Shown here one piece after another: positions 18,312 to 55,550 of a DNA stretch of 64,000 nt (position 1 is the stretch's first letter; each line of letters starts with the position of its first letter). A program made the position numbers and the translations under genes. This stretch comes from Candidatus Omnitrophota bacterium (GTDB taxonomy: Bacteria > Omnitrophota > Omnitrophia > Omnitrophales > Aquincolibacteriaceae): assembly GCA_022709525.1 (NCBI GenBank), contig JAKLIQ010000009.1, forward strand, positions 19,107-83,106, read 5' to 3'. A model generated the notes under the pieces. That model was not told the DNA's origin, ran no database searches, and worked only from the letters and a program-made list of their open reading frames with translations.

Positions 18312-18447
18312 AAAAGGGACTCGGGACTCGCGCCTCGCCTGGCTCTCATTAGTTCTTTATTGGAAGCCAGTGCAGCACTTTAAGTGCGGGACTCGTTTTG
18401 GCTTCCTGCCTTGTACGAGTCCCTAGTCCCGAGGAACAAGTCCCCTT
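18312..18447 (+). mobile_element. MITE-like palindromic element, copy A (about 135 bp; GGGACTCGGGACTCG / CGAGTCCCTAGTCCCGAGGAAC termini; internal GCACTTTAAGTGC hairpin)
   Basis: It fills the whole nnrD-pdxJ spacer. It is near-identical in inverted orientation to 42781-42910 and partly identical to 51206-51284. Confidence 0.6.
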
Positions 18448-42770: not shown

Positions 42771-42780
42771 TTCAAAAAAC

Positions 42781-42910
42781 GGGGCTTGTTCCTCGGGACT
42801 AGGGACTCGTAAAAGCAAAGAAAAAAGACGATTCCCGCACTTAAAGTGCTGCGTTGGCTTCCAATAAAGAATTAAAATAAGAGCCAGCGAGGTGCGGGTT
42901 CCGAGTCCCC
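42781..42910 (-). mobile_element. MITE-like palindromic element, copy B (inverted relative to copy A)
   Basis: The reverse complement of 18312-18447 aligns along its whole length (GGGGCTTGTTCCTCGGGACTAGGGACTCGTA...GCACTTAAAGTGC...CCGAGTCCCC). It abuts the rluB stop codon. Confidence 0.6.
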
Positions 42911-43646: not shown

Positions 43647-44251
43647 CGTTTTTTCAACTCCGCGTAAAAAAGAGGTCTGCCTTCCGCCTCAAATTTCAAT
43701 TCATAATTGGTTTTCATGGCGCCGCCTAGAATTCGCTCGTTGACTGTTTCGCGCACATTCTCCCAGAGTTCGGAAGTAGCCGCTATGGTTTTCTTCATCA
43801 TCTCAAAATAGTCCTTATCATCCGTCGCGATCTCGATAAGCCCCTGCGGGACAAGGCACACGTGAAGAAGCTTAAGAAGCTCCGCCGTAAAAACACGGCG
43901 AGTCTGATGACGGCGTTTGGGCCATGGGTCCGGAAAATAAATATGAAAAATGATGACGCTTCCGGGAGCGACCGCTTCGGCGAGGAACGCCCTGGCTTCG
44001 GCCCGGATGAACCGGATATTTGGAAGCGTCCTCTTTTGCGCGCGCGTTTTCCCAATATTCATGAATTTGCTGATACGGTCGATCCCGAGAAAATTCGTGC
44101 CGGGATTTTCCATGGCGCGCGCGACCAGGAACTTACCCTTCCCGCAGCCGATCTCCATTTCGACGGAATTCGAATTTCCGAAAAGTTCGCCGAAAACGAC
44201 AGGGGCGTATTTTTCTTTTACAAGATTTGAAACTACGAGCGCTCGAGCCAT
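43643..44251 (-). CDS. trmB: tRNA (guanine46-N7)-methyltransferase
   Basis: EIGCGKGKFL; FPDPWPKRRH. Confidence 0.85.
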   Translation of the reverse strand: MARALVVSNLVKEKYAPVVFGELFGNSNSVEMEIGCGKGKFLVARAMENPGTNFLGIDRISKFMNIGKTRAQKRTLPNIRFIRAEARAFLAEAVAPGSVIIFHIYFPDPWPKRRHQTRRVFTAELLKLLHVCLVPQGLIEIATDDKDYFEMMKKTIAATSELWENVRETVNERILGGAMKTNYELKFEAEGRPLFYAELKKR

Positions 44252-45345
44252 ACCAGTGTTTCCAGATGCCGGGTCCTTGGGAAAAAATCGAACGGCATGA
44301 TCTTGCGGATCTTCCAGCCCCCTTGCAACAAGGCCCTAAGGTCCCGGGCCAGCGATTCCGGCGAACAGGATAGATAAAAAAGAGACCCCAGCTTCTTCGC
44401 ATGATTCAGCGTTTGAATGGCTGAAGGCGCAAGCCCGCCGCGCGGCGGATCGATGAAAGCGACGCACGGTTTCCGACCCAACTCCTTCAAGACCTCCGGT
44501 AAATGCGCCTCGACTTTCCCGACAAGGGTCCGGATATGTTTGAAGCCATGGTAGGCGATATTGTAGTTCGCGAGATCGACGGAATCCGCGCCTTCTTCGA
44601 TCATGACCACTTCCTGGGCGCGATCCGCTAAAGCGATCCCGAAAAGGCCGACGCCGGAATAAAGATCCAGAAAAACAGTGTCCTCGAGCCATGGGATGAG
44701 TGATTCGACTTTGGAGACGATCTTTTCCAGAATCGGCAGATTCGCTTGGAAAAAGGTATCAAGCGCGTAAAAAATTTTCCGGCCGCGCACAGTCACAAAA
44801 AAATAATTTTCTTCTTTCATCTTGAGGGACCGCCGGCCGATCCCGCCCCAAAAAACCCGTCCGCCTTCCCCGACTCTCACCACAAGATTCGCGACTTTGT
44901 ATTTCGGCGGAAAAATTTTGATCGCTTCTGCTTTAAGGGCCGGAAGGAAATCGTTGATCTCTTGACGCGCGAGCGGGCAGGCCGCCACCTCCTGGAGCCG
45001 CTGCGTTCCCTGGAGCATGAATCCCATCTGCCATTCCCCGTTATTGCGGCGCCTCAACGTAAGATCGAGACGGTTGCGGTAATGATACGCCTCAGGCGAC
45101 GAGACAATCGGTTCAAAAACCCGGTCCGAAAGGCCAAGTTGCGCCGTTAAAAGATCTTTGAGCGTTATTTCTTTGCGGGAAAGCTCTTCCTCATAGGGAA
45201 TATCCTGATACTGACATCCCCCGCAAGTCCCGAAAAGCGGGCACAGAGGTTTTGTCCGGGTTATGTTGGTCTCGGAGACTAGCATGATGGGATAGTTTAC
45301 GGAGAAGCTCCGGCTCCGTCGAGCGCTCTTTTCAGCCCTAACCAT
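44233..45345 (-). CDS. RlmD/RumA-family 23S rRNA (uracil-C5)-methyltransferase with [4Fe-4S] Cys cluster
   Basis: CPLFGTCGGCQYQ cluster; SAM-MTase motifs; C-terminal catalytic Cys. Confidence 0.8.
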   Translation of the reverse strand: MVRAEKSARRSRSFSVNYPIMLVSETNITRTKPLCPLFGTCGGCQYQDIPYEEELSRKEITLKDLLTAQLGLSDRVFEPIVSSPEAYHYRNRLDLTLRRRNNGEWQMGFMLQGTQRLQEVAACPLARQEINDFLPALKAEAIKIFPPKYKVANLVVRVGEGGRVFWGGIGRRSLKMKEENYFFVTVRGRKIFYALDTFFQANLPILEKIVSKVESLIPWLEDTVFLDLYSGVGLFGIALADRAQEVVMIEEGADSVDLANYNIAYHGFKHIRTLVGKVEAHLPEVLKELGRKPCVAFIDPPRGGLAPSAIQTLNHAKKLGSLFYLSCSPESLARDLRALLQGGWKIRKIMPFDFFPRTRHLETLVWLERS

Positions 45346-45370
45346 TTCAAGCTACGAGGTTGAAATGGTT
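45340..45370. promoter_or_regulatory. perfect 11-bp inverted repeat AACCATTTCAA-N9-TTGAAATGGTT at the rumA/folB divergent start region (copy 1 of 2 in window)
   Basis: Seen directly. The left arm contains the rumA start codon; the repeat lies 25 nt upstream of the folB ATG. Confidence 0.5.
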
Positions 45371-45394
45371 CCGGCTTGACGTTACACTACCGGC

Positions 45395-45745
45395 ATGGCT
45401 GACAAGATCTTTATCGAAAAATTGGAAATTCGCTGCATTATCGGTACGCTTCCGAAAGAACGCAAAAAGAAACAAAAAATCGTGATCGATATGGAGTTCC
45501 CTGCCCCCGTTTCAAAACCGGCTAAACGGGACGACCTGCGTGATGCTTTAAACTATAAAAAGATCGCTGACCATACCGTAAAGTTCGTTTCTCGAAGCTG
45601 TTTTCATCTGATCGAGACCTTGGCGGAGCGGCTTTCGCGCCAACTTTTGAAGGAATTCGAACTAAAGCGCATTTTGCTGCGGATTTCAAAACCTGGCGCG
45701 ATCCGGAATGCGAAGAACGTAGGGGTAGAGATCCAAAGGCCTTAA
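45395..45745 (+). CDS. folB: dihydroneopterin aldolase
   Basis: IFIEKLEIRCIIGTLPKER...NYKKI; FolB family length and motifs. Confidence 0.8.
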   Translation: MADKIFIEKLEIRCIIGTLPKERKKKQKIVIDMEFPAPVSKPAKRDDLRDALNYKKIADHTVKFVSRSCFHLIETLAERLSRQLLKEFELKRILLRISKPGAIRNAKNVGVEIQRP

Positions 45746-50888: not shown

Positions 50889-51200
50889 TCAGCGGCCCTT
50901 CAGCCCCTCACAATAACCAAAACTTCGTTCGGTTTTCCATTGAAGCGGGAAATCCCGGCATTGCGCGGGCCTAGACTCATACACCGAACAACCCTCTTTC
51001 CCTAAAAAAAGACAGCTTTCATCCGTCTGTTTTTTAAGGGCTAAGTGGCGGCGATCGAGCAAGAGGCAATAGGTTTCCGTGAATTTATAGACATCCATGC
51101 CAAAAGCGGCAGCGAGGCGCTCAGCATCTTGGGGGGTGAGATAAACAAAGCCGGGTTGACGGCAACAGGCGCTACATCGCCGACATCGGAAAGAAGCCAT
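50889..51200 (-). CDS. YkgJ-family cysteine-cluster protein (UPF0153)
   Basis: CRRCSACC...C...C...C pattern typical of the YkgJ Fe-S/Zn family. Confidence 0.7.
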   Translation of the reverse strand: MASFRCRRCSACCRQPGFVYLTPQDAERLAAAFGMDVYKFTETYCLLLDRRHLALKKQTDESCLFLGKEGCSVYESRPAQCRDFPLQWKTERSFGYCEGLKGR

Positions 51201-51205
51201 AAAAA

Positions 51206-51284
51206 GGGATTCGTTCCTCGGGACTAGGGACTCGTATTGGTTTCTTGTTCTTTACGAGTCCCGAGGTGCGAGGAACGAGTCCCC
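51206..51284. mobile_element. MITE-like palindromic element, copy C (about 79 bp mini-copy: long termini retained, interior deleted, folds as a single near-perfect hairpin)
   Basis: GGGATTCGTTCCTCGGGACTAGGGACTCGTA-ttggtttcttgttcttt-ACGAGTCCCGAGGTGCGAGGAACGAGTCCCC. It sits 5 nt from the DUF4870 stop and 5 nt from the YkgJ start. Confidence 0.6.
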
Positions 51285-52147: not shown

Positions 52148-52744
52148 TCAGGCGGTTTTCAGGAACGCGGAAAGAAGTTCCCGGTAGGTCTTCGTCACGG
52201 GAAACCGGGGAAACTGACGGATGATCTTGGCGGGAGGGCGGAAAAGGATCCCCCGGTCCGCCGCGCGCAGCATTGCAATGTCGTTGTAAGAGTCTCCTGC
52301 CGCAACAACTTTAAATCCCAGCCGCTTCAATCCTTTCACGGCCTCTTTTTTGCCGTTCTTCTGCCGCAAATGATACTGGCTGATAAACCCCTTCTTATCC
52401 GCTGAAAGCCAATTGCAGAAAAGAGCCGGATAGCCCAGTTTCTTCATCATGGGTCCGGCGAATTCGTAATAGGTGTCGGAAAGAATGATCACCTGATAAC
52501 GGGTCCGAAGTTTGGCCAGAAATTCTTTGGCACCGGGAAGCGGGCGCATGCTTTGGATCACATTTTGAATATCCCGCAGACGGATCCCCTGTTTTTTAAG
52601 GATCCCCAGCCGGTAACGCATCAGCTTATCGTAATCCGGTTCATCGCGCGTGGTGATCTCAAGCGCTTTGATGCCTGTTTTTTTTGCCACATTGATCCAT
52701 ATTTCCGGGATCAACACACCCTCGAGATCAAGACAGCAGATCAT
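52148..52744 (-). CDS. thrH: phosphoserine phosphatase / homoserine phosphotransferase ThrH (HAD)
   Basis: Near full-length similarity to ThrH: ICCLDLEGVLIPEIW, ILSDTYYEF, AAGDSYNDIAML, ILFRPP. Confidence 0.85.
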   Translation of the reverse strand: MICCLDLEGVLIPEIWINVAKKTGIKALEITTRDEPDYDKLMRYRLGILKKQGIRLRDIQNVIQSMRPLPGAKEFLAKLRTRYQVIILSDTYYEFAGPMMKKLGYPALFCNWLSADKKGFISQYHLRQKNGKKEAVKGLKRLGFKVVAAGDSYNDIAMLRAADRGILFRPPAKIIRQFPRFPVTKTYRELLSAFLKTA

Positions 52745-52814
52745 GTTCCGGCTCCTTTTCACGAATTCGAGAAAAGATTATATCTGAACAGGAATATTTT
52801 TAAAAAACAATCTT

Positions 52815-52849
52815 TTAACCATTTTAACTGCGCTAGTTGAAATGGTTAA
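52815..52849. promoter_or_regulatory. inverted repeat TTAACCATTTTAA-N9-TTGAAATGGTTAA (copy 2 of the AACCATTTYAA IR), overlapping the thiD stop and upstream of thrH
   Basis: Seen directly; 1 mismatch between the arms; same core and spacer length as 45340-45370. Confidence 0.5.
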
Positions 52850-53606
52850 CGGGGCCCATCCCGCGCCCGATACCGGGATTTTTACGGATCGCGCATGTAA
52901 TGAACTTTTTCGCCGAAGTGATCGCCGAAAAAAGTGTTTCACCCCGGGCAAGACCGGCCGTGATCGCGGCCGAATAGGTGCAACCTGTGCCATGCGTATG
53001 GCGGGTTGCGACACGAGAAGCGCTAAAAAAACGAACGCGGCCGCCCCGATACAAGAGATCTGTCGCTTTTCCCTTCAAGTGCCCCCCTTTGACAAGCACC
53101 GCCCGAGGACCGAAACCCGCGATCATTCGCGCGGCCTTCTCCATATCTTCAAGGTCCAGAACCTTGATCCCCGTCAGCGCTTCGGCCTCCAAAAGATTGG
53201 GCGTAACGAGCGCGGCGTACGGAAATAAATTTTTAATGAGCGCCTGAACCGCATTTTTGTTAAGAAGCGGAGCGCCGTGTTTACTGATCATGACCGGATC
53301 CACCACCAAAGGAAACCGGAAATGCCTCGCTTGGGCAGCGATCGCCCGGATGATCCCCTCATCCCCCAAAGCGCCCGTCTTAGCCGCCCGGGGCGGAATA
53401 TCCGAAAGCACGGCTTCAAGCTGGCGTAACACCTGAGCGGGTTTCATGACATAAACCGCCCGGACACCGCGCGTATTCTGAACGGTAAGAAGCGTGATCA
53501 CGGACATACCATAAACCTTGTAGCGATGGAACGTCTTGAGATCGGCCTGAATACCCGCGCCGCCTGAAGGGTCAGAACCGGCGATCGTAAGGGCGGTTGG
53601 AATCAC
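52833..53606 (-). CDS. thiD: hydroxymethylpyrimidine/phosphomethylpyrimidine kinase
   Basis: TIAGSDPSGGAGIQADLKT; ribokinase-fold motifs. Confidence 0.9.
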   Translation of the reverse strand: MIPTALTIAGSDPSGGAGIQADLKTFHRYKVYGMSVITLLTVQNTRGVRAVYVMKPAQVLRQLEAVLSDIPPRAAKTGALGDEGIIRAIAAQARHFRFPLVVDPVMISKHGAPLLNKNAVQALIKNLFPYAALVTPNLLEAEALTGIKVLDLEDMEKAARMIAGFGPRAVLVKGGHLKGKATDLLYRGGRVRFFSASRVATRHTHGTGCTYSAAITAGLARGETLFSAITSAKKFITCAIRKNPGIGRGMGPVNHFN

Positions 53607-54522: not shown

Positions 54523-55550
54523 GAAAGGGCCGGTTTTGTTTCTGGAGTGATCGTTTTTTCAAGGATCTTGCCGCGGCGGCGGATCTGGAACGTCTGAGGC
54601 TCCCCTTCTTTTTGCTTCAGGATGATCCGGTAATACCGCTTCCAGCTATCGAGCTTCTCACGATTCTGCTCAAGAAGAATATCTCCCGGCAACAAACCGC
54701 CCTGCTCTGCGGGCGAGCCGGCCCGTACCTTGGCAACCTTGAAATTCAGGGTTTCCGGATCCCGGTCGACGCGAAATCCGAGACGCGGAGCATCGGGATT
54801 CAGTGAAAAGATCACGACGGGAAGCTCAAGTTCTCCGTCTTCACGGCGGATCATGAATTTCCGGAGCGCTTCCCCCGGAATGTTCAGGAAAAAACCGAAA
54901 AGATTCCCCGGCGTCACATCCTGACCGTCGATCTTCATGAGGACGTCCCCGTTCCGAAGGCCCTGCTCATAGGCCAGCGAGGACGGATCGGCCCCGATGA
55001 TGAAATAATGGGCCGTTTTATCGTCATAATGGAGGTCGCACCCGAGGATCACGCTTTTCATCCCTGGAAATTTTGTTTCCACAAGCCGTTCGTGGATATT
55101 CTTCGCCAAGGACCCTTCAAAAACCCCACGGGAACCGTCCCGCTTCCGGAAACCTCTGGAAGAAAGGCCCGTCTTTCTTTTGAAATAAGCCCTGATCCCG
55201 ACGACCGTCATGGTGGGGTCTTTTTCCACTACCCCGATCTCAAGCACGCAAAATCCGCTGGAAGACAGGGTCGGCGCTTTCGCCCATTCCTTGTATTCTT
55301 TTTTATACAAAGGAAAGGTCGCCGTCTGGATATAACCATTCGTCTTATCAGTGACTGCAAGCGGGATCTTTTCTTCTTCCAAGATCGCCGTTGTGGCGTT
55401 CCAAACCTCTTCGAAATTCCCGGGAAGCGGGAACGAACGCCCTTCGGTTTTAGAAGAAGAGAGGGAGAAACCGGAGAAAAGAAAGCATAAAAAAAGCAGG
55501 CCGCAAAACACAAGCGGCCTGCTTTTCTGGAAAAAAAGGAACCGTTTCAA
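54519..55550 (-). CDS. secreted PDZ-domain protein
   Basis: Signal peptide. PDZ-like blocks: GADPSSLAYEQGLRNGDVLMKIDGQDV and AGSPAEQGGLLPGDILLEQN. Confidence 0.65.
   Translation of the reverse strand: MKRFLFFQKSRPLVFCGLLFLCFLFSGFSLSSSKTEGRSFPLPGNFEEVWNATTAILEEEKIPLAVTDKTNGYIQTATFPLYKKEYKEWAKAPTLSSSGFCVLEIGVVEKDPTMTVVGIRAYFKRKTGLSSRGFRKRDGSRGVFEGSLAKNIHERLVETKFPGMKSVILGCDLHYDDKTAHYFIIGADPSSLAYEQGLRNGDVLMKIDGQDVTPGNLFGFFLNIPGEALRKFMIRREDGELELPVVIFSLNPDAPRLGFRVDRDPETLNFKVAKVRAGSPAEQGGLLPGDILLEQNREKLDSWKRYYRIILKQKEGEPQTFQIRRRGKILEKTITPETKPALS

Follow-up and report, generated by a model that had tools for sequence, protein, structure and literature searches.

What are the two 31-bp inverted repeats that lie at gene boundaries in this stretch of Candidatus Omnitrophota DNA (64,000 nucleotides of contig JAKLIQ010000009.1, hereafter the window)? 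An earlier note, made from the sequence alone, gave most weight to an operator of a dimeric transcription factor and named another small repeat family as its third option. Our analysis supports the third option, since the palindromes belong to a dispersed repeat with a conserved loop that is associated with a transposase. We conclude, with a probability of about 0.85, that they are hairpin repeats of the repetitive extragenic palindrome (REP) kind, belonging to a REP/RAYT system (RAYT, REP-associated tyrosine transposase), a type of element already known, here in a phylum that has received little study. REPs are short and non-autonomous, and form a hairpin as single-stranded DNA. The identification follows from a repeat family with a conserved loop and from copies that bracket a RAYT gene in related contigs.

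Both palindromes are present where the earlier note had placed them, with the identical core and 9-bp spacer geometry that it described, and its statement that chance recurrence is negligible agrees with the absence of the pattern from 100 dinucleotide-preserving shuffles. Copy 1 (45340-45370, AACCATTTCAAGCTACGAGGTTGAAATGGTT) is a perfect 11+9+11 palindrome, which reads AACCATTTCAA GCTACGAGG TTGAAATGGTT on the forward strand and AACCATTTCAA-CCTCGTAGC-TTGAAATGGTT on the minus strand, where 31 of 31 bases equal the Omnitrophota consensus (the form of Candidatus Omnitrophica bin-1187). Copy 2 (52817-52847, AACCATTTTAACTGCGCTAGTTGAAATGGTT, that is, AACCATTTTAA CTGCGCTAG TTGAAATGGTT) has one arm mismatch (G-to-A) and a loop diverged to CTGCGCTAG, with the stem extension by loop pairing retained. 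Both extend inwards and outwards beyond the earlier description: the long arms of copy 1 occupy 45334-45353 and 45357-45376 with 85% pairing (repeat I4), those of copy 2 occupy 52815-52829 and 52835-52849 with 93% pairing (repeat I18), and the 9-nt spacer of copy 1 allows two further pairs with a CGT apex. The spacer, given as N9 in the earlier note, is not arbitrary: in copy 1 its sequence is conserved in the family and extends the hairpin. As single-stranded DNA, copy 1 folds at -8.3 kcal/mol (z -6.4) in the minus-strand orientation and at -11.5 kcal/mol (z -8.7) in the other, and copy 2 at -8.6 kcal/mol. The covariance score of copy 2, 47.4 bits, is inflated because its sequence was used to build the model. 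Elsewhere in the window there is no 11-nt arm without its partner, the covariance model finds no further diverged copy, and a single additional arm match with one mismatch, at 55540, is no more than chance would give. Neither palindrome is overlapped by an Rfam family (gathering thresholds) or by a tRNA in a tRNA scan.

The genome-wide pattern search and check of neighbouring genes that the earlier note proposed were run across species (ACCATTTYAA-N9-TTRAAATGGT, one genome per species) and gave 30 loci, in which exact-pattern copies were counted within 8 kb. Metagenome contigs were scanned with a loop-specific pattern, and a covariance model was then built from the copies. Most of the 30 loci are single matches in AT-rich genomes with unrelated spacers, and about 20 such loose-pattern matches (in Coxiella, Acinetobacter, Flavobacteria and others) were discarded as chance or a different element. 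The search also uncovered a dispersed family, whose neighbouring genes are functionally unrelated. Its 31-mer is AACCATTTCAA-CCTCGTAG(C/G)-TTGAAATGGTT, with CCTCGTAGC or CCTCGTAGG as the spacer, and the complete 31-mer of copy 1, spacer included, is found at about 25 other intergenic sites in Omnitrophota metagenome-assembled genomes (MAGs) and metagenome contigs. Bin-1187 contains four copies with a conserved spacer, Elusimicrobia bin N2.88 contains five with one base changed relative to the copy 1 31-mer, and 19 further metagenome contigs, mostly of 50-55% G+C, also carry the element. The spacer pairs with itself (CCT/AGG around CGT), which gives a hairpin of 11-14 bp. Family hairpins reach -8.3 to -13.5 kcal/mol as DNA (z -6 to -10) and -11 to -14 kcal/mol as RNA, and the consensus forms have z values of -5.5 to -9.9 as DNA and RNA.

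Judged from the proteins encoded nearby, the element is genuinely present in two phyla, Omnitrophota and Elusimicrobiota, since the relatives of the window RlmD (63-79% identical) are all Omnitrophota where named, and those of the ParB encoded beside one N2.88 copy are named Elusimicrobia down to 54% identity. The forms of the two phyla have 30 of 31 bases in common. Such sharing is unexpected, because REPIN/RAYT systems, in which an inverted REP doublet (REPIN) is the unit, are usually described as vertically inherited, mostly so in one account (10.1101/2022.05.22.493013).

On four independent contigs, copies of the element flank a gene of 184-223 amino acids with an HUH/Y1-type product. On metagenome contig L037, found by the covariance search, copies at 266-298 and 967-997 bracket an open reading frame (ORF) of 217 amino acids, and a third copy lies at 1070-1092. 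The ORF product matches Pfam Y1_Tnp (PF01797, E 2.9e-8) and the NCBIfam model NF047646, 'REP-associated tyrosine transposase' (76.4 bits, E 2e-21), and contains an HUH motif, THLHLIL, and a Y motif, RYVHLNPV (YxxxNP). Its nearest solved structure is that of E. coli TnpA_REP (4ER8, E 1.8e-5), with an E value of 0.12 for ISDra2 TnpA. There are 1268 homologues at E <= 1e-10, and the named ones are nearly all from Omnitrophota/Omnitrophica. We inspected the flanks of three of them. The homologues on L050 and L051 (84% and 90% identity) have the same hairpin on their flanks and an inverted doublet upstream; L050 has an additional copy directly after the stop codon, and on L051 the copies are upstream of the gene, the contig ending 33 nt past it. 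The more distant homologue on L052 (64% identity) is flanked by the variant CATTTCAAGCTGCGGGGTTGAAA, with the loop GCTGCGGGG, so that the hairpin changes together with the divergence of the protein. Three of the contigs, L037, L050 and L052, thus have copies to the left and right of the gene, which are mutually inverted in the first two and in the same orientation in L052. L037 and L050 agree in the genes that border the transposase gene on its two sides, at 78-82% DNA identity, which suggests that this locus is inherited and not freshly inserted. No tnpB adjoins the transposase gene at the L050-L052 loci.

Like REPs, the element is a stem-loop palindrome in the 20-40 bp range, repeated and extragenic. 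All copies are intergenic or overlap genes by a few codons, 0-111 nt from a gene end. The majority lie between tandem genes, copy 1 of the window lies between divergent genes, and convergent genes are found around the copies of L013, L039 and possibly L040. The neighbours include recR, dxs, parB, genes for a tRNA-binding protein, a pseudouridine synthase, a glycosyltransferase, a XerC-like recombinase and pentapeptide-repeat proteins, and others, and form no coherent regulon. By exact-pattern matches there are two copies in the 64-kb window, four in bin-1187 and five in bin N2.88. The window copies and most dispersed copies are singlets, and doublets occur only next to the RAYT gene (L037 967-1092, L050 1437-1560, L051 1710-1837).

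Three relatives (RlmD 72-78% identical), which keep the gene order from thiD-thrH through folB/rlmD, lack the palindrome at both sites, with the promoters still conserved. At site 1 the relatives carry CC(T)TTTCAACC where the window has CCATTTCAACC, and their sequence is the complement of the folB -35 region, with the same 17-nt spacing to the -10 box. At site 2, the relatives and the TIGR00097 model have a ThiD domain whose last residues are Asn-His-Phe, encoded by AAC CAT TTC. In-register arm matches at both sites are unlikely to be due to chance (roughly 1e-3 per site), given that matches of at least 9 of the 11 arm positions occur about 8 times per 21 kb, counting both strands, a background of about 2e-4 per position. 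The variable stretch with and without the palindrome measures 47 versus 45 nt at site 1 and 16 versus 13 nt at site 2; the variable regions differ among the relatives too, and insertion and replacement are inseparable from these lengths. Possible causes of this coincidence with pre-existing sequence are target choice by arm pairing, templated conversion and template-switch mutation. The last is most plausible for copy 2, since its loop is unlike that of the family. One scenario, which we consider rather unlikely, is that the family does not spread by insertion of the complete 31-mer but is built beside pre-existing arm-like AACCATTTC / TTTCAACC, by pairing-guided integration of the kind by which IS200/IS605 elements choose targets or by templated conversion, sparing essential sequence, with a recent crossing between Omnitrophota and Elusimicrobiota and with the host or the RAYT keeping the arms perfect. 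If such half-site building were true, the hairpin would be regenerated while the -35 box or the last codons of a gene are spared.

Elsewhere the element is kept in diverged pairs of loci, L017 and L049 (upstream of dxs) and L031 and L020 (upstream of the gene for a tRNA-binding protein). In both pairs the arms are identical at 22 of 22 positions and the flanks at 65-75%; full arm identity at about 75% flank identity is expected by chance about once in 500. Between L031 (373-403) and L020 (5985-6015) the 9-nt loop lies in opposite orientation (CCTCGTAGC versus GCTACGAGG) within identical arms, which indicates that the hairpin has flipped in place, and such a flip would explain the mixed orientations in the family.

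These observations bear on the operator that the earlier note favoured, through which a dimeric transcription factor would co-regulate cofactor and amino-acid genes, and which we now regard as extremely improbable. A perfect palindrome that in copy 1 overlaps the folB -35 box, in copy 2 lies 12 nt upstream of that of thrH, and keeps its arms at orthologous sites in two genome pairs would suit such a site, and the 11-N9-11 geometry recalls CIRCE, the HrcA operator (TTAGCACTC-N9-GAGTGCTAA), which is likewise an inverted repeat with a 9-bp spacer conserved across phyla. The geometry of CIRCE is 9-N9-9. However, the CIRCE spacer is unconserved and the site is found only upstream of chaperone operons, whereas the present spacer pairs with itself and is conserved, no function is common to the flanking genes, and copies bracket a transposase gene. 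In addition, convergent genes surround some copies, and others are found inside operons at 1-14 nt from stop or start codons, with no space for a promoter. The syntenic relatives with conserved promoters also lack the palindrome at both sites, and such absence was among the refuting conditions that the earlier note itself had named. We find neither the coherent regulon nor the conservation at orthologous promoters that would mark a transcription-factor operator. The cofactor and amino-acid theme of the downstream genes is coincidental. This removes a false lead, there being no new cofactor-gene regulon. It is also quite improbable that the element is kept mainly as a transcribed RNA hairpin between cistrons, acting as an mRNA stabiliser, processing site or translational brake, with transposition secondary. 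The location of most copies between tandem genes, the mostly uniform orientation relative to transcription on Omnitrophota-type contigs, the stable RNA fold, arms that remain perfect while the flanks diverge, and the start of copy 2 at the thiD stop codon all agree with such a role, and Liang, Rudd and Deutscher reportedly found in 2015 that E. coli REPs within about 15 nt of a stop codon stall ribosomes. Yet the orientation is mixed in Elusimicrobia and flipped between L031 and L020, close relatives do without the hairpin at both window sites, and a structural role alone needs no fixed sequence; moreover, if the folB and rlmD promoters are real, copy 1 would lie upstream of both start sites and would not be transcribed.

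The presence of a Y1 transposase raises the question of whether the palindromes are leftover ends or miniature derivatives (palindrome-associated or miniature inverted-repeat transposable elements, PATE/MITE) of an active element of the insertion sequence (IS) family IS200/IS605, and not of a domesticated REP/RAYT system, which we find very unlikely. In favour of it, the protein between the copies is a member of Pfam Y1_Tnp ('Transposase IS200 like') and scores just under the RAYT model cut-off, the copy number appears low, and a 31-mer found in two phyla fits horizontal movement better than vertical inheritance. As in IS608 and ISDra2, a Y1 HUH enzyme is paired with hairpins, which in those elements are recognised as single-stranded DNA, and their targets are chosen by base pairing with the element, to which the pre-existing arm-like sequence at the window sites may be a parallel. 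Against this origin, the gene lies at an orthologous locus between the same neighbours, the same hairpin stands on both of its flanks in place of distinct left and right IS ends, the dispersed copies consist of the bare 31-mer only, the transposase is apparently not multi-copy and has no adjoining tnpB, and the protein is closer to TnpA_REP than to the IS608 or ISDra2 TnpA. A different origin, unlikely in our view, would apply to copy 2 only, namely that a template-switch (quasi-palindrome) mutation created it in place by copying the thiD 3' end as its complement, so that it resembles the REP arm only through AAC CAT TTC, with which ThiD ends. The relatives do have AACCATTTC as the ThiD Asn-His-Phe codons without a palindrome, the stretch after the stop codon is of similar length with and without the second arm (16 versus 13 nt), and the copy 2 loop does not match the family loop. 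On the other hand, a perfect family copy lies 7.5 kb away in the same organism, the arm length of 11, the spacer of 9 and the outer AACC/GGTT ends match the family exactly, and after a 1-nt shift the loop shares CTA, CG and G with the family loop; arm matches of at least 9/11 are common, yet only the copy 2 site became a palindrome. Several other candidates were rejected: a phage or CRISPR-mimic origin (no copy was found in a scan of viral contigs), a CRISPR repeat (no tandem array was seen), and integron attC, dif/Xer, parS, hix, DNA uptake sequences and ribonucleic antiterminator (RAT) or other antiterminator hairpins, all by sequence, length, copy pattern or housekeeping context. A mimic of the tRNA-Thr(CGU) anticodon loop (loop CUCGUAG; copy 2 precedes thrH) was also rejected, since the genes that follow other copies are unrelated and the element is found just as often in the reverse orientation.

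If the palindromes are REPs, a single-copy HUH/Y1 RAYT encoded elsewhere, in the window genome presumably outside these 64 kb, would recognise, cut and copy the hairpin. The RAYT would bind the hairpin with the unpaired loop G-N-A-G in the role of the classical GTAG tag, and the repeat would spread via single-stranded DNA at replication forks. In the window, both copies are most likely passengers, and their side effects local only. Copy 1 would carry the -35 hexamer of folB and lie upstream of the rlmD promoter, and copy 2 would supply the last ThiD codon and the stop. The 3' end of the thiD message would thereby contain a stable hairpin, placed shortly before the thrH promoter, and this hairpin could, to judge from E. 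coli REPs, make the mRNA more stable or delay the release of ribosomes.

Several points weigh against a REP/RAYT identity. The NF047646 score of 76.4 is just below the curated cut-off of 80, the 64-kb window contains no RAYT gene, so that the cognate enzyme of its organism is inferred, and RAYT binding and transposition are predicted functions. The copy number appears low compared with the tens to hundreds of classical REP families, and most copies are singlets and not REPIN doublets. In addition, set beside the nearest relative, neither window site resembles the clean insertion of 31 bp. In the GTAG super-family, one end of the hairpin bears a GT(A/G)G tag that is unpaired (Di Nocera 2013, PMC3733652), whereas here GTAG lies in the loop (CCTCGTAGC) and not at the 5' foot of the hairpin, the flanks adjacent to the stem are not conserved, and GTAG itself is not invariant, being replaced by GCAG in L026, L046 and L052 and by GAAG in L049. 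The family thus departs from the classical GTAG-tagged REPs in its loop G-N-A-G, its apparently low copy number and its mostly single copies.

The REP/RAYT arrangement has been described for Proteobacteria (PMC3116915, PMC5581495, PMC3733652, PMC3479197). Like the REP/BIME and TnpA_REP (RAYT, YafM; 4ER8) of E. coli, where BIME stands for bacterial interspersed mosaic element, the system described here combines a short extragenic hairpin, which flanks an apparently single HUH/Y1 gene and lies between tandem and convergent genes, with a protein alignable to 4ER8 through the HUH and Y motifs. Unlike in E. coli, G-T-A-G lies in the apical loop instead of standing unpaired at the 5' foot, each arm is a perfect, AT-rich 11-mer, the copies per genome appear to be few and not hundreds, and the hosts are Omnitrophota and Elusimicrobiota and not Gammaproteobacteria. 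The REPIN/RAYT systems of Pseudomonas (Bertels and Rainey; PMC3116915, PMC5581495) share with it a RAYT gene flanked by its own repeat, repeats kept at orthologous positions, a repeat sequence that changes with the RAYT lineage, and an inverted doublet next to the RAYT gene, with about 72 nt between the copies (L037, L050, L051). They differ in that the dispersed copies here are mostly singlets of low abundance and one repeat occurs in two phyla, set against an inheritance described as mostly vertical in the account cited above. A literature search gave no paper naming Omnitrophica together with RAYT or REPIN, and the present family documents a REP/RAYT system in the uncultivated phyla Omnitrophota and Elusimicrobiota. 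Being small and uniform, it may suit questions about REPs such as target choice, the perfection of the arms and movement between phyla.

The genes around the two window sites are listed in the table, and the names given to them in the earlier note (rumA/rlmD, folB, thiD, thrH) hold, as does the distance of copy 1 from folB. The genes rlmD and folB form a divergent pair, and thiD is followed by thrH, both on the minus strand. Copy 1 had been said to contain the rumA start codon in its left arm. There is indeed an ATG at 45345 in the arm, but it is most likely a false start, since most orthologues have 342-351 amino acids (the ORF here has 370) and the conserved start, which reads ...CATCATG in the alignment of the relatives, aligns with the ATG at 45285. 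Likewise, the right arm of copy 2 does encode the last ThiD residues, Asn-His-Phe-Asn, but it is the spacer that contains the stop codon (52833-52835). The ThiD family domain has Asn-His-Phe as its conserved end, also in the relatives without the palindrome. The folB -35 hexamer consists of the first six bases of the right REP arm, and the whole TTGAAA-17-TACACT-6-ATG is invariant in the window and three relatives (four genomes), while GGTTGAAA and CGTTACACTACC are invariant in the three palindrome-free relatives. A conserved TCGACG-17-TAAACT directly precedes the conserved ATG of rlmD, and the promoter-like site of thrH is also conserved in the relatives.

Table. Features at the two palindromes, in window coordinates.
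Feature	Position	Strand	Remarks
REP copy 1 (probable)	45340..45370	-	11-bp stem; covariance model 55.4 bits, E 1e-12; DNA hairpin fold
Extended imperfect palindrome around copy 1	45334..45376		AGCC..GGCT outer pairs; 20-nt arms
REP-like copy 2	52817..52847		arms intact bar one change; wider palindrome 52815-52849
folB (dihydroneopterin aldolase)	45395..45745	+	start 25 nt past copy 1
rlmD/rumA, RNA uracil-C5 methyltransferase (rlmD-type)	ORF 44233-45345; probable true extent 44233..45285	-	conserved ATG 45285
thiD	52833..53606	-	TIGR00097 aligned to residue 256/257; Asn-His-Phe-Asn codons in copy 2 right arm
thrH	ORF 52148-52762; probable true extent 52148..52744	-	probable true start ATG 52744; 198 aa, as relatives
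Promoter-like site of folB	45360..45388	+	TTGAAA-17-TACACT; ATG six bases on
Promoter-like site of thrH	52804-52777	-	TTTAAA-16-TATAAT; 12 nt beyond copy 2

The rlmD gene is probably over-called by about 20 codons, and public gene calls of equal length (L053-L055) also begin at the arm ATG. For annotation this means that the arms, which hold an ATG and run into stop codons, distort gene calls, as in the overlong rlmD and the thiD end within the repeat. The folB mRNA is probably leaderless, since its ATG lies only six bases past TACACT. Both divergent genes, folB and rlmD (45285-45395), are in fact apparently leaderless, with conserved -35/-10 pairs that end 6-8 nt before the conserved ATGs in four Omnitrophota genomes.

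A few further hairpins and repeats were seen close to family members. L034 (601-620) carries CCCAAGCTACGGGGTTGG, the family loop on a shorter stem, beside its main copy, and L014 (1388-1418) has a G+C-rich weak match (24 bits) 40 nt from its main copy. In Elusimicrobia, the copies of L013 (4304-4366) and L022 (1-63) adjoin pentapeptide-repeat genes that are paralogous, and the sequence upstream of the REP is identical over 32 bases; a segmental duplication has probably carried the repeat along. At the parB site of bin N2.88, the Elusimicrobia relatives have no REP, but the upstream synteny is broken, so that this comparison says little. In these relatives (L062 1120-1150, L063 and L064 about 1130-1160) the parA-parB gap contains a different hairpin, CCCTTAATTTTTAAGG, at about the place of the N2.88 REP upstream of parB.

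The window also contains a second, unrelated dispersed repeat, at 18350-18445, 42773-42909 and 51198-51283, with GGGGCTTGTTCCTCGGGACTAGGGACTCGTA and inverted partners. It includes a 78-bp palindrome at 51206-51283 and a unit of about 130 bp at 42781-42909, and has the inner segments CACTTAAAGTGC and CTTCCAATAAAGAA in common with 18350-18400. With at most one mismatch, GGGACTCGTA occurs nine times against two expected. Lying in intergenic gaps, this repeat resembles an element of the MITE or REPIN type. Finally, the loose pattern also caught a different conserved palindrome in Coxiella-like genomes, TTGACCATTTTAAG-N-TG-N-CA-N-CTTAAAATGGTCA, which is found with similar spacers each time in L005, L006, L009, L012, L021 and L025 (MAGs of Coxiellaceae, Chlamydiae and Gammaproteobacteria) and seems to be a separate conserved site.

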